From assembly GCA_951406725.2 (NCBI GenBank), contig CATOCA020000016.1, positions 1 through 64,000 of the forward strand: DNA of 64,000 bases, in the 5' to 3' direction. The DNA comes from Octopus vulgaris. Taxonomy: Eukaryota. Position 1 is the first letter of the stretch, and each line of letters opens with the position of its first letter. This document shows, in pieces, positions 412-27,382 of this stretch. The position numbers were made by a program, and so were the translations under genes. The notes under the pieces are model-generated. The model made no database searches. It had not been told where the DNA came from and saw only the letters and a program-made list of their open reading frames with translations.

Positions 412-740
412 TAAAATTAATAATATCAAAGGGTAATCTGAAATATTACAAATTTCCATTACCAGAGGCCTAGCGTGTAAAAAATTTAGTCAATAGACTA
501 TATATTATTCATATAAATACAGTGTACATTTAAATACAAAATAGGTATCCATCATAGAACTACCTGCACGGTAGAGAGGACAGTTAAATTTCAAACCACT
601 ATTAGGGATAAAATTTCGAATGGACGGAAAAATAAAAACAATTACCATCTAACTCCTGGACCAATGGTTTCAGACTTTTTTTATCAAATAAAATCATTTG
701 CTAGGCGAAGACTTCTTCAGCAGGTACACCTTAGATTAAT
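412..740 (-). mobile_element. Short non-coding insert between (TA)n tracts carrying a hammerhead ribozyme (probable PLE pseudo-LTR remnant)
   Basis: Unique sequence bounded by TA-rich microsatellites on both sides; contains the HHR at 655-724. Confidence 0.6.
655..724 (-). ncRNA. Type I hammerhead ribozyme
   Basis: Minus strand: cctg-CTGAAGA-agtctt...aagtct-GAAA-ccattgg-TC-cagg; stem I cctg/cagg, stem II with one mismatch, stem III acca-t-tggt, GUC site. Confidence 0.7.
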
Positions 741-1190
741 ATATATATAATATAATAATATAATATAATATAATATAATATAGTATAATATAATATAATA
801 TAATATAATATATATATATATATATATATATATATATATATATATATATATATATATATATAATATATCAATATAGAAATAATGAACTTTTAAAAAAAAT
901 TCTATCGGCCAGCTTCCCTCGATTTCAGCTCTACGTGTTTTTCTGTAGCGAGTAAATATGCGGAAATTGACGATTTAAAAGTCTGTTAACAGCATATTGG
1001 CATAGAAATAATTTTCTTTAGCCCTTATTTATAAGTTGTTTATAATTTTAACCTTAAAGGTATTTTAATATGCTGCCACATTTTTTGATGGAATTTTTTT
1101 CTGTAAAAAGACTTCATCCTATATTAGTAGTATAAGATATATATATATATATATATATATATATATATATATATATATACACGTATATAT

Positions 1191-1338
1191 TACGAGCTTC
1201 TACATGGTTTCTCTCTACTAAAGTCGCTCACAAGGCATTGGTTGGCCCGGGGCTAGAGCTGAAGACACTTGCCCAAGTTGCCAAACAGTAGGACTGAACC
1301 CGGAACTACATGGTTGCAAAGCGAGCTTCTTAACCACC
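1191..1338 (-). mobile_element. SINE family A, diverged 5' half
   Basis: Similar to full copies (gaagacacttgcccaag, ggactgaacccggaac). Confidence 0.75.
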
Positions 1339-3913
1339 CATCCTTTATATATATATATATATATATATATATATATATATATATATATATATATATATAT
1401 ATATATATATATATATATATATATATATATATATATATATATATATATATATATATATATATATATATATATATTTTTATAACCCTAAATCATGCACTAC
1501 TTTATACATCATCGCACCCCATCTTTGACTGAAACGTATTCGTTCAGTTGTAAAACATCATTTTACTCTTCGCTCTTCCATTATTCATTTCCCCAATATG
1601 CCTTCATTGTGAACCAATGGTTTTAAGAGACTTTTTGCACTTTATACTTCCTCGTTTGAAACGTTGGATTCATCTCTGTTTCTTCCTTGCAGCATAAAAT
1701 TAATCATCTTTGCTGCGTTATTTTTTTCGTTCTTGAAGTTTTTGATATTTGAAGACATTGACCTACCTATGATAAAGTCACTGAAAGTATATGGAATCAA
1801 AAGAATGCAGCTTAATGGAATTTTCACCAACACCTTATTGTATTTCCTCTCATTAACGCAAACACACATACATACACACACATGCACACACGCAGACACA
1901 GAGACTCATTTACACTCACACACATACATTTACACGTAAATACACACACATATAGACTTATACTAGATTGCACATGCCAACACATCCCGAGACTCGTACA
2001 TACATACTCTAACACACTTGCACGTCTTCCACGTAGTTACATCATTGCAAACGCGCACACTCTCGATCATGGACATACATACATACATACACACACACAC
2101 ATATATATATATATTTTATTATTTACACTTAAATATATATGTGTATATATATATATATATATATATATATATATATATATATATATATATATATATACAT
2201 ATATATACATATACACACACACACACACACACACACACACACACACACACACACACACACACACACATATATATATATATATATACATATACATATATAT
2301 ATATACATATATATATATAAAGGCACACGGTGTGAGATGGATTGCTAGATAAATTTTGTATTACATTAACGAACTTTTGAGAAGGAAGTTTCTAATTAAT
2401 ACTTGCCTTTAAAAATTTTTGGATTAAAATCCTGCATGTTTTTCTACGATGGGAATGAGGAAATCCTAAATGTCACACGGAGAATACATAAATCATTGGC
2501 CAATTGAAGCGAAGGATTCCTTTCATCACGTTATCTTTGATTACAAGCTTGGATGAAGATTTTTCATCCGCTGTTTTTCTACGCATGATAAAGAAAACTC
2601 CATAGGAGTTGTAATCGACTTTAATGTAACTTAATGAGCTCTGGAAAAGAATTCTCGCCTTTTATAACAAGAATAACAACAATAATTGCAAAAATAAAAA
2701 AAAATATAATAATAATAAAAATAATAATAATAATAATAATAATAATAATAATAATAATAATAATAGTAATAATAATAATAATAATATAATAATAATAATT
2801 ACGACGACGACGATGATGATGATTATAATAATGATAATAATAATAATAATAATAATAATAATAATAATAATAATAATAATAATAATAATAATAATGACGT
2901 TGACGATGATGATGAGGTTGATGATGATGATGATTATGATGATGATGATGATGATGGTAATAATATTAATAATAATGACGTGAAACGGAATTTAGTTACT
3001 AAAATCATAAATTCTTTTACCAATTAGACCGTTATTTTGAACTGCATAAAATGTTACAACGTTTTACTTGCAGCAATAACCATAAAATTGATAATTTCGA
3101 TTTCTTTTCATGTAACACATGACCATGTAGTTTTTTTTCTCTATTTTTATTTTATTTTTATTTTTGTTTTTGTTTAGGAGTGGCAAGTGGGAAGGTTTGA
3201 CGCACATACATTTGTCAAGGACGTTATTATTAGGACGATGGAAGGGCAGAATTAGTAACGCGTCAGATAACATGACTTGCAGTATTTAGATACATGCCTT
3301 GACATTCTTAGTTCAAACCTTAACGCTGGAGCCGAATAAATTAATACCATTGAAATACTGGTGTCGATTGAATAGACTATGCCCATGCGCCGAAATTAAT
3401 GATGGTGTGTCTAGGCATGAAATCGGTATTAGGGTAAGTTGTTTTCCGTTTGGACATCCATAATCCAAACCAAACCGCGGTTTCAGCTAACCGTAAGTTA
3501 CACATGCATAAACACGGGCGCACATATACATACATACATACATACATACATACATATATATATATCTTTATATATTTATATACATATCTTTATATATTTA
3601 TAGTAATATATATATATATCTTTATTATATATATATATATATATATATATATATATATATATATATATATATAATTTTAAAAAATGGGATAAAATCTTAA
3701 TAAAGAAATTATCAAGTAGTTAGCGTGAAAAACCTCATAAGAGAAAAAATCTGTAAATTTTTTCACTTGAAAATATTTATTTATATTATATAGAGGGCAT
3801 TATTACACATAAATGCCGCACGCTAGGAGGGACTTTTAAAGTCATAACTACCAAATATAAACAAATCGTACCGAATGCAATTCTCGAAGCGAGTCATTTA
3901 AAAACAGAATTTA

Positions 3914-3977
3914 GCTCCAGATCACCTGTGATTTCGCAATCAACGCAGTATCCGCGTCCCTTGCTCTTCAGAGAAGC
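3914..3977 (-). ncRNA. Type I hammerhead ribozyme (antisense copy)
   Basis: Reverse complement of 4288-4351 with one stem I substitution next to the core. Confidence 0.75.
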
Positions 3978-25431: not shown

Positions 25432-26945
25432 TTTTGATTTTGATTTTTCTAGTTTCAGCTAATGAGCTGTGGCCATGCTGGGGCACCGCCATTTGGTTTG
25501 CTACACGATTTTACCTCACGGATGCTTTTTAGCAAACGCCATCTGATGCATGAGAGAGTTCGATGCAGCTGCCCTCATCTGCACCTCCTGCCGTGAAGTT
25601 GGTTCATCCGGGAAACCTGACAGGAAGAGATCCAGTCCTACTTTAAAGACATCCGCATCTACACCATGTAGGTCCCTCAGGTTCTTCGGGAGGATATTGA
25701 AGAGCCGTGGGCCTCTGAAGCCCAGGCTATCACAATATCTTGTCCTACATCTTGATGGCAAATTTGGAGTCCTTGGTACTACGCAGTGGCGTCCGGTTCT
25801 GGCATTTGTGTGACTCTCGATGCCAAAGTCTGGGACAAGACCTTCCAGGATCTTCCAGATATATATTATGGCATATCTTTCTCGCCTACGCTCCAGGGAA
25901 TAGAGCTTTAATCTCTTGAGTCTTTCCCAGTAGCTCATATGTTGCACAGAGGCTATCTTCTTCGTGTAGCTTCGTTGGATCGCCTCAAGTTCTGTGATCA
26001 ACTTGACAGTGGATGGTGACCATAGCTGAGAGCAATAGTCAAAGTGGCTTAGGACAAGTGTCTTCCAGAGGACCATCATGGTTTCTTGTTCTCTTGTTCT
26101 GAAGGTTCTAAGAATCCAGCCAGCCAGCCGTCTACATTTCATTGTCAGTTTAGCAACATGTACATGAAAGGTCGCGTCATCACTCATGTAAATACCCAGG
26201 TCACGCACTGATTGTGCCTCCGGGATTGCAATCCCTCCAGGTCCAGTGTATTCATTGGGTATTGCTTGCAGTTTTGCATGCTGATAGTGTAAAGCTTGAA
26301 ACTTTTCAGCATTGAACTGCATGCTATTCTTTTCAGCCCACTTGTATATTTCGTCCAGCTCACATTGCAGTTGCTTAGTGTCTTCAGGGTTCTGTATTGC
26401 CTGTGAAACTTTTGTATCATCTGCATAACTTGTGATCGTGGCTCTCTGCGTGGCTGAGGGCATGTCTGAGAGGGCCATTATGAACAGTAGTGGTCCCAAA
26501 ACAGTGCCCTGTGGAACACCGCTCACTATTTGCGTGTTAATGGAAGTGGCCCCATTGGCTGCTACCACCTGACTTCTATTCTTCAGAAAGTCATGAAGCC
26601 ATTCTCCCAGTTTTCCAACTATGCCAAGATCACGCAGTTTGTGACATATCATTCCATGATCGACTTTATCGAAGGCCTTTGCAAAGTCGAGATATATGAC
26701 TTCCACATTTGAGTGGTTGAGCAGTTGTTTCAGCACCCAGTCATAGTGTTGTAGGAGCTGAGTTAAGCAGCTTCTTCCTGGTCGGAAACCATGTTGGGTG
26801 TCAGGCAGCAAGTCATTTTCTTCAAGGAAGGTGATTAGTTTCCTTCGAACTATTCGTTCCATGACCTTGCTGATGTGTGAGGTGATAGAGATAGGTCTGT
26901 AGTTCTTGGCCTCCGCTCTGCTACCTCCTTTATGAATAGGGCAAC
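25432..26945 (-). mobile_element. 5'-truncated CR1/L2-group LINE between TA-rich microsatellites
   Basis: RT ORF followed by a short 3' UTR ending gctgaaactagaaaaatcaaaatcaaaa. Confidence 0.92.
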
Positions 26946-26982
26946 TTCCTAAAGTTTTCTTGGAAGTTTGTAATATATACAT
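25516..26982 (-). CDS. Non-LTR retrotransposon reverse transcriptase (5'-truncated; homology starts ~26943)
   Basis: NYRPISITS, QHGFRPGRSC, YLDFAKAFDKVDH, SGVPQGTVLGPLLF, YADD, VRDLGI, LYSLERRRER; no stops. Confidence 0.93.
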   Translation of the reverse strand: MYILQTSKKTLGSCPIHKGGSRAEAKNYRPISITSHISKVMERIVRRKLITFLEENDLLPDTQHGFRPGRSCLTQLLQHYDWVLKQLLNHSNVEVIYLDFAKAFDKVDHGMICHKLRDLGIVGKLGEWLHDFLKNRSQVVAANGATSINTQIVSGVPQGTVLGPLLFIMALSDMPSATQRATITSYADDTKVSQAIQNPEDTKQLQCELDEIYKWAEKNSMQFNAEKFQALHYQHAKLQAIPNEYTGPGGIAIPEAQSVRDLGIYMSDDATFHVHVAKLTMKCRRLAGWILRTFRTREQETMMVLWKTLVLSHFDYCSQLWSPSTVKLITELEAIQRSYTKKIASVQHMSYWERLKRLKLYSLERRRERYAIIYIWKILEGLVPDFGIESHTNARTGRHCVVPRTPNLPSRCRTRYCDSLGFRGPRLFNILPKNLRDLHGVDADVFKVGLDLFLSGFPDEPTSRQEVQMRAAASNSLMHQMAFAKKHP

Positions 26983-27241
26983 ATTAATATATATATGAAT
27001 ATATATATATATTCAAATATATATATATCTATTCATTACATGTATATATATATATTAATATGTATATATATGAATATATACATATATATGTGTATATTTG
27101 AGTAATTGAATGAATTATCTTATTAAGGATGATTCGAAAGATAACCGATACCTCGGTAGCAAATTCACATCAGAAAAAACACGGTTGAAGCTACGTCCCT
27201 AGGGCATAGACTACGTGTCTTCGTGCGGAAATTTGTACGTT

Positions 27242-27382
27242 TATTTTAAAATTACAAGTATATGAAAGAATGGAGTTGAACGACTAGTTAACAAATATCT
27301 CACCTCGCCCGACGGGCGAGGTGAGATATTTGTTAACTAGTCGTTCAACTCCATTCTTTCATATACTTTTAATTTTAAAATA
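27242..27382. repeat. Palindrome with 70-bp arms and a 1-nt loop at the end of a TA-flanked insert (27100-27382)
   Basis: 27242-27311 versus 27313-27382, one mismatch. Confidence 0.95.

Follow-up and report, generated by a model that had tools for sequence, protein, structure and literature searches.

We analyzed a 64-kb window of Octopus vulgaris DNA (positions 1-64000 of the contig; genome 2.8 Gb), an AT-rich, microsatellite-dense sequence in which six inserts in or beside (TA)n tracts had been proposed to be hammerhead-ribozyme mobile elements and two further TA-flanked palindromes to share their architecture. We conclude, with a probability of about 0.88, that five of the eight are 5'-truncated 3' ends of protein-coding Penelope-like elements (PLEs) and that three are short units without an open reading frame (ORF), likely copied in trans by the same enzymes, all with a predicted type I hammerhead. 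The inserts are new families of already known kinds, although they may already carry names in Repbase or Dfam. We refer to the six inserts as F1 to F6 and to the two palindromes as F7 and F8; the palindromes came without coordinates in the initial annotation and were taken as 27098-27382 (F7) and 14545-14830 (F8).

The whole set had been described as non-autonomous. This holds for the ORF-less F1, F2 and F8 and fails for the other five families, which are ends of PLEs coding for a reverse transcriptase (RT) and a GIY-YIG endonuclease; linkage to PLE ORFs, suggested at the time as a check, was found for F3 to F7. All six inserts are high-copy families by genome search. First-look candidates for F1 to F6 numbered 2744, 1973, 1912, 2061, 143 and 1526, of which 40 were scored per family, and these are not copy numbers.

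The parent of F5 is an intact, young Hydra-type PLE of 2,588 bp. The window copy matches 169 nt at 99.4% identity to the ends of 2,588-bp tandem units, which in arrays run from a 5' untranslated region (UTR) through a 708-aa RT-endonuclease ORF and a 3' UTR to the hammerhead end. This ORF is open in three of five fetched loci, its start is present upstream of the end in two loci, and a search with the ORF-start stretch gave 40 scored matches, all at 100% and some at 2,588-bp spacing. The protein has RWK at 37, DKT at 114, a CxCx5C linker (CSCRNKELC) at 557, and the endonuclease motifs CxxC..E (CGLCDME at 660) and N..CxH (N..CPH at 682); no Cx2-5CxxC match was found in the ORF and, as judged by eye, the CCHH motif is absent from it. 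An initial Nematis label for this ORF was dropped when the motif test pointed to Hydra. Among its homologues, the best 120 of 1,032 have 41-52% identity. None of the sequencing runs listed is recorded as RNA, and 14 are only presumed to be RNA. No spliced joint of F5 was seen in three contig sets that are only possibly RNA. The F5 unit is covered by contigs from four runs, and one contig of 2,586 nt closes on itself, which is also expected from tandem DNA and was not used as evidence. In the largest run, summed contig depth at locus L171:2000-4500 is ~100-fold higher at the F5 hammerhead end than at the ORF start; this excess is in line with heavy 5' truncation, and related families contribute to it.

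Two other families, F3 and F7, also appear to be of Hydra type, assigned by a profile built from 60 of the 120 F5 homologues and not motif by motif as for F5. Two F7 loci are colinear for ~800 nt and reach a Hydra-type endonuclease end with, by eye, the same endonuclease pattern as F5; the ORF link of this family consists of that end only. For F3, the sequence runs ~3 kb upstream through diverged internal repeats to a Hydra endonuclease on the hammerhead strand in three of 20 extended loci, and in one of these 20 RT is also reached (E 1.7e-92). An earlier reading of F3 as ORF-less, based on one profile match in 25 loci, was ruled out once longer stretches reached the ORF. An F3 copy at locus L205 (C8:38681146-38684512) includes part of a Hydra ORF that gives way, at the RT-endonuclease linker, to a long (AAT)n tract resembling the Asn-rich inserts of rotifer PLEs.

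The remaining two PLE ends, F4 and F6, are putatively of Neptune or Nematis type, as indicated by a Cx2-5CxxC linker and a CCHH endonuclease; the name "Neptune" is our assumption from a resemblance. In F4, a CA/CATA-rich UTR connects the repeat end to coding sequence: two of five fetched loci stay colinear beyond 3 kb upstream and contain RT together with a CCHH-type GIY-YIG. Each of the 20 loci retrieved by the F6 endonuclease end has F6 further downstream; the F6 linker is CGKPNCGIC, with CAGC and two His in locus L188, and the F4 linker and endonuclease motifs in locus L177 are as in F6, partly decayed. Across F3 to F7 we observe the traits of PLEs, namely 5' truncation, partial tandems forming pseudo-long terminal repeats (pLTRs), an inverted 5' copy, an optional tail and, by fold only, a type I hammerhead in the pLTR.

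The type I fold claimed for all six inserts was recovered in each. A descriptor scan of the window gave six sites in four inserts (Table 1), and F3 and F6 carry variants. The F3 motif has a full core, a 6-bp stem I and a U.U pair opening stem II, while the F6 core UUGAUAA, present in 40 of 52 family copies, is the U3-A8 covariant. The U.U pair in stem II also occurs in F8, and F4 and F5 have a U4C core. Natural hammerheads include U3-A8, U4C and U10.1-U11.1 variants (PMC4209133; PMC3088659). The two palindromes had been described as lacking a clear hammerhead, and their window copies indeed end just 3' of the hammerhead of their family; in F7, most family copies have a CUGAUGA hammerhead just upstream of the point where the window copy is cut and inverted. 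Sixty block-wise dinucleotide shuffles of the window yielded far fewer sites than the real sequence, with a mean of 0.017 for the strict core and 0.43 with one core substitution allowed. When the stem III loop limit was raised to ~25 nt, four of five matches still had a 0-2-nt loop and the fifth (55732) was chance-like. Rfam gave no matches in the window at gathering score and, by E-value, no hammerhead among the best 150 of 334 matches. For repeat annotation, this means that Rfam misses all hammerhead motifs of these inserts.

The five stem III palindromes quoted for the inserts are present in the sequence, and that of the sixth insert is also palindromic (ACGT). Energy predictions favor duplexes (-4.1 to -12.6 kcal/mol) for these stems, which would not be stable when folded into hairpins (0 to -0.3); this matches the published model of dimer cleavage. 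Hammerhead families in the genome far outnumber those of the window: among all collected loci (722 kb, redundant), the descriptor accepts 31 distinct types of stem III and cleavage site, and in nearly every type stem III is palindromic.

In these insertions the main 3' end is fixed and the extent of 5' truncation varies; an inverted arm is frequent, and each family has two preferred 3' ends. A run of (TA)4 or longer starts at most 45 nt from the 3' end at 14/18, 9/19, 18/23, 22/23, 22/23 and 23/23 non-window loci for F1 to F6, and at 18/18 and 10/18 for F7 and F8, compared to a background of 5-16%, with 11-16% at random positions (flank counts leave out the window's own copies and the second assembly copy of the locus on contig C1). 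(TA)n is absent from read-through unit junctions, and TA is therefore read as the preferred target and not as a templated tail. Inverted 5' arms occur at 8/18, 7/19, 8/23, 1/23, 22/23, 11/23, 12/18 and 12/18 loci for F1 to F8, where the rate for F5 may be inflated because its query began at the window's inversion point and very common words were skipped. The ends of these arms cluster at a second fixed site, for example at one position in 19 of 22 cases in F5, which lies upstream of the main end by ~26 nt in F6, 43 nt in F8, 61 nt in F5 and 140-155 nt in F7. Target-site duplications of 11, 13 and 14 bp were found in three of 18 F8 copies, in non-repetitive AT-rich DNA with no added TA run, as expected from staggered nicks and target priming; none was found at both junctions for F1 to F7, in which TA flanks hide them. 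The proposed link to PLEs, the hammerheads, the TA targeting and the fold-back arms, including inverted duplications at three of the six inserts (F2, F3 and F5, Table 1), are supported.

Such signatures suggest how the copies may arise. A GIY-YIG endonuclease would nick AT-rich or (TA)n DNA, and RT would start within the RNA at one of two fixed sites, usually stopping early near the hammerhead; for a PLE, internal RT starts at two sites generate a "tail" in vitro (PMC11167929). A second RT start on the other strand would produce the shorter inverted arm by two priming events, a tandem or circular RNA template could yield the more-than-unit copies, and a palindromic stem III may allow dimer cleavage by two paired hammerheads.

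Long inverted repeats and TA flanks are also features of miniature inverted-repeat transposable elements (MITEs), and on these grounds the inserts could be taken as TA-targeting fold-back DNA transposons or MITEs with chance hammerhead matches. This is hardly credible, given that the inverted arms repeat the 3' end of the element itself, truncated to variable extents, unlike fixed terminal inverted repeats, and that the duplications are 11-14 bp rather than 2. It is refuted by the ORF links, through which five families lead into RT/GIY-YIG ORFs, and by the shuffle test (0.017 strict sites vs. 6).

The three ORF-less families, F1, F2 and F8, close on themselves: past the point where they join TA, the sequence re-enters the hammerhead region, giving unit periods of 472, 460 and 352 nt (GC 33, 35 and 42%, respectively). 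Doubled-unit alignments cross the unit junction in 10 of 18 F1 and 17 of 19 F2 loci, strict-core hammerheads are present in 14/18 F1, 15/19 F2 and 14/18 F8 loci, and the longest stop-free frames are 53-88 aa. The inserts had been called unrelated in primary sequence, and by BLAST F1 and F2 indeed have no similarity, yet both carry TAGCGTG and CACGCTA 86-95 nt apart near the long 3' end. This pattern has 1,005 exact matches in the genome vs. three for a reversed control (self-complementary cases count twice), and the matches listed include further subfamilies with periods of ~490-505 nt. F1 and F2 are probably sister units, as this common long-range helix suggests. No PLE ORF was found joined to F1, F2 or F8 in 18, 19 and 18 loci, nor in 30 unselected loci with the helix. 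We lean slightly toward the view that F1 and F2, together with their sisters, belong to a single large and old lineage of hammerhead RNAs, ORF-less and 460-495 nt long, that share a conserved long-range helix near the 3' end. On this view, a Penelope-type enzyme inserted both this lineage and F8 as retrozymes, which the inverted arms, two fixed ends, TA bias and 11-14-bp duplications suggest. The downstream flank of locus L102 contains an older F8-related family (78% identity), in which a UUGAUAA (U3-A8) core was seen by eye.

Alternatively, all eight families, including F1, F2 and F8, could be mere pLTR remnants of autonomous PLEs. The short tandems would then result from template jumps or from a solo pLTR being duplicated locally, and would not be independent mobile units. 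A PLE terminus has been proposed to seed a local tandem (Li et al., 2026, bioRxiv 10.64898/2026.07.22.740005), arrays here rarely reach two full units, the ORF of F3 lay hidden behind a 3-kb UTR, and only 40 candidates were scored per family. Yet unrelated loci have an identical unit junction and unit length, which argues for a common template and against independent local duplications. Further, the pLTR of the Hydra parent of F5 continues into the 5' UTR and ORF, whereas F1, F2 and F8 return to the hammerhead region. In the 30 unselected helix loci (the first places on contig C1, ~22 distinct), the three Hydra-profile matches, in two places, are antisense or more than 1 kb off. We therefore regard an origin of F1, F2 and F8 as pLTR remnants as unlikely.

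Several points nonetheless count against PLE-driven copying of ORF-less units as we propose it. Arrays of F1, F2 and F8 are short, 1-2 units, and dispersed. Two strict-core hammerheads about one unit apart occur only in the window copy of F2 and in locus L041 (477 nt), with a pair at 362 nt in locus L045, and no such pair was found among 18 loci each of F1 and F8, taken with 1.5-kb flanks. The preference for TA is less marked in F2 and F8 than in the other families. No autonomous partner of F1, F2 or F8 was found, so that the case for trans-mobilization is built on shared insertion signatures, and the F3 ORF ~3 kb off shows that a distant ORF is possible for these units as well. Finally, the F5 ORF, on which the Hydra profile is based, has no Pfam match.

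Core conservation and stem covariation, which had been suggested as a check, were obtained for one group, that of F2. The alignment holds 20 diverged copies, left after 14 of 34 thinned rows were dropped (junction-cut copies, zinc-finger and other chance matches, one other family, one duplicate unit and one near-duplicate). Identity reaches 98% at the 11 invariant core positions vs. 80% in the region of stem I and the 5' flank; N7 and H17 are free to vary. Two-sided changes occur in seven of 21 pairs, the covariation score was reached in 0 of 500 shuffles that ignore the kinship of rows, and pairing is 94% vs. 22-46% in slid controls.

These folds might still be leftovers of ancestral ribozymes, or they might serve the RNA in a different way, for instance by binding or pausing RT, and not self-cleave in vivo. 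Some of the cores belong to weak variants, with U4C in F4 and F5 and a U.U pair in stem II of both F3 and F8; published minimal hammerheads of PLEs cleave poorly (PMC4209133), and anole RNA-seq gave no reads ending at the site (PMC11167929). In one run that is possibly RNA, a contig spans the F5 site without a break, as DNA or ligated RNA would likewise. We consider relics or other structures improbable, because diverged subfamilies keep the catalytic core at 98% although N7 and H17 change without constraint, and because in F6 both partners of the C3-G8 tertiary pair have changed to give U3-A8, so that the pair is maintained, as selection for catalysis would predict. The case for self-cleavage is weakened by the kinship of the aligned rows, by their selection through a stem III anchor, which inflates GAAA and stem III conservation, and by a 3' flank that is also well conserved (92%) in the F2 group. 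Moreover, hammerhead cleavage is dispensable in vitro for anole PLE insertion (PMC11167929), and one of nine predicted Xenopus retrozymes cleaved (bioRxiv 10.64898/2026.07.22.740005).

Feature bounds are given in Table 1. They differ from those first given for the first, fourth and sixth inserts; F4 starts at 22438 and not at 22410, without TA on its 5' side.

Table 1. Features of the eight inserts in the window (hammerheads are predicted; element types are putative assignments from motifs or profile).
Feature	Position	Strand	Detail
(TA)n abutting F1 3' end	377-413		
F1, 5'-truncated copy of ORF-less 472-nt head-to-tail unit	415..749	-	hammerhead 720-659, core CUGAAGA, stem III ACCAUUGGU
F2 inverted arm, (TA)n at end	3673..4092	-	
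F2, ~1.75 direct copies of ORF-less 460-nt unit, (TA)n at end	4135..4939	+	hammerheads 4294-4345 and 4754-4805, spacing 460 nt
F3 short inverted arm	8639..8684	-	
F3, 3' end of Hydra-type PLE	8680..8896	+	hammerhead 8686-8762; ~3-kb 3' UTR of diverged internal repeats
F8 main arm, copy of ORF-less 352-nt unit	14545..14720	-	truncated 3' of family hammerhead (CUGAUGA, stem III ACUCGAGU)
F8 inverted arm	14713..14830	+	ends at second fixed end of family
F4, 3' end of Neptune/Nematis-type PLE	22438..22602	+	minimal hammerhead 22477-22503, core CCGACGA
(TA)n tract common to the F4 and F5 3' ends, which face each other	22603..22623		
F5 main arm, 3' end (pLTR) of Hydra-type PLE	22624..22792	-	hammerhead 22778-22728, core CCGAAGA
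F5 inverted arm	22806..22896	+	second hammerhead 22820-22870; stops ~60 nt before main 3' end
F6, 3' end of Neptune/Nematis-type PLE	23482..23845	-	partial tandem 23728-23845; hammerhead 23616-23578, core UUGAUAA
F7 main arm, 3' end of second Hydra-type PLE	27098..27299	-	truncated just 3' of family CUGAUGA hammerhead
F7 inverted arm	27325..27382	+	
Descriptor hammerhead sites	720-659, 4294-4345, 4754-4805, 22477-22503, 22778-22728, 22820-22870	-, +, +, +, -, +	

Other elements surround these inserts. The window locus is assembled a second time on contig C1 near 173.43-173.46 Mb with small differences; there, F2 has one direct unit fewer and the F1 3' end has no TA run. PLE fragments, already reported for the window, were located at 24888-24643(-), 28453-28923(+) and 41327-41632(+). 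A 498-aa RT frame at 25516-27012(-) was rejected as a further PLE fragment, since it matches Pfam RVT_1 and none of six PLE queries; we take it to be of long interspersed nuclear element (LINE) type. A ninth family, absent from the initial annotation, has Neptune-type ends at 23835-24020(-), with 24888-24643(-), and at 17952-18130(-). One of its ends lies ~600 nt downstream of the window's GIY-YIG fragment, and its hammerhead-like fold often has the core CUGUAGA or similar (A6 changed), with CUGAAGA in one of eight copies in the collected loci. An older F4-related 3' end (83.5% identity) at 17839-17929 is truncated past the hammerhead and has (TA)n at its end. Outside the window, a Neptune-type PLE at locus L178:7424-4118(-) is nearly complete but frameshifted and carries a hammerhead of its own (stem III AGUACU, U.U opening stem II). 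By type names that are partly our assumption, the window also contains a zf-RVT LINE end followed by (TATC)n at 10173-10874(+), a decayed CENP-B/pogo-type transposase at 6126-8134(+) and a mariner-like fragment at 41774-42100(+). A decayed stretch resembling 18S ribosomal RNA was seen by eye at 16000-16260, and a U6 small nuclear RNA fragment at 23384-23429(-) scores below the Rfam gathering score.

The anatomy described here is itself published and would not surprise a specialist. Truncation, partial tandems, inverted 5' copies, tails, hammerheads and (TA)n bias of PLEs have been reported (Craig et al., 2021; PMC8557442), together with Hydra-1_Obim, a 2,507-bp element of Octopus bimaculoides with (TA)n and stem III acca-a-tggt. 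Hence the system is not new, as that octopus element has a stem III nearly identical to the acca-t-tggt of F1. The Hydra clade, like F5, has units below 3 kb, a single RT and endonuclease ORF with RWK, DKT, CxCx5C, CxxC and CxH motifs, (TA)n insertion and a hammerhead ~100 nt from the 3' end, and the Hydra-1_Obim protein is visibly homologous, by eye, to the F5 ORF. F5 shares this size and TA preference, F7 the TA preference, and F3 exceeds 3 kb through its ~3-kb 3' UTR. Unlike Hydra-1_Obim, which is listed without a pLTR, F5 forms multi-unit tandems and carries pLTRs. The available supplement text of Craig et al. (2021) contains none of five exact F5 motifs, and the families, tested for F5, seem to be missing from it. 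This was the only relevant paper found on Penelope hammerheads in octopus.

Thousands of heterogeneous PLE hammerheads per genome have been described (Cervera and de la Peña, 2014; PMC4209133). As here, Neptune/Nematis-type PLEs have a pLTR hammerhead, mostly single truncated copies, many sequence families per genome, opposite-strand pairs 100-700 bp apart, a palindromic stem III, the U3-A8 variant and predicted dimer activity. The present families are not named in the available part of that work, in which F4 also has no counterpart for its microsatellite-like ~3-kb UTR, and several stems III found here, of 3-5 bp, are longer than its minimal motif. The PAc Poseidon element of Anolis carolinensis (Frangieh et al., 2024; PMC11167929) is alike in its two internal RT starts giving a "tail" and in its AT-rich cleavage preference; it belongs to another clade, and the distance between the two ends here ranges by family from ~26 to ~150 nt.

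Non-LTR (long terminal repeat) retrozymes and their PLE origin are likewise published (Cervera and de la Peña, 2020, PMC7229834; Li et al., 2026, bioRxiv 10.64898/2026.07.22.740005). Metazoan examples resemble F1, F2 and F8 in their ORF-less units of a few hundred bases, GC below 45%, one type I hammerhead per unit, head-to-tail repeats and proposed dependence on PLE enzymes. Unlike them, F1, F2 and F8 form dispersed arrays of 1-2 units. The PLE insertion marks of these families (an inverted arm, a second fixed end, TA bias and 11-14-bp duplications) were not found in the available portions of the retrozyme descriptions, and no octopus retrozyme paper on these units was found by title and start of abstract. 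How retrozymes enter DNA, what role the hammerhead has in PLEs and how PLEs choose microsatellites are questions posed in the literature, and in the portions of the PLE and retrozyme literature surveyed we found no assay of a Hydra enzyme. This genome offers a test set, comprising a Hydra family that is intact and whose copies are nearly identical, young units with no ORF that bear target-site duplications, and about 30 hammerhead types in 722 kb. Three points keep their interest: ORF-less units bear the insertion signature of PLEs, a helix unites F1 and F2 with a large lineage, and the Hydra enzyme is intact and young; if the reading of these units as a retrozyme lineage is true, the presence of that enzyme in the same genome would make trans-mobilization of an animal retrozyme directly testable in vitro.

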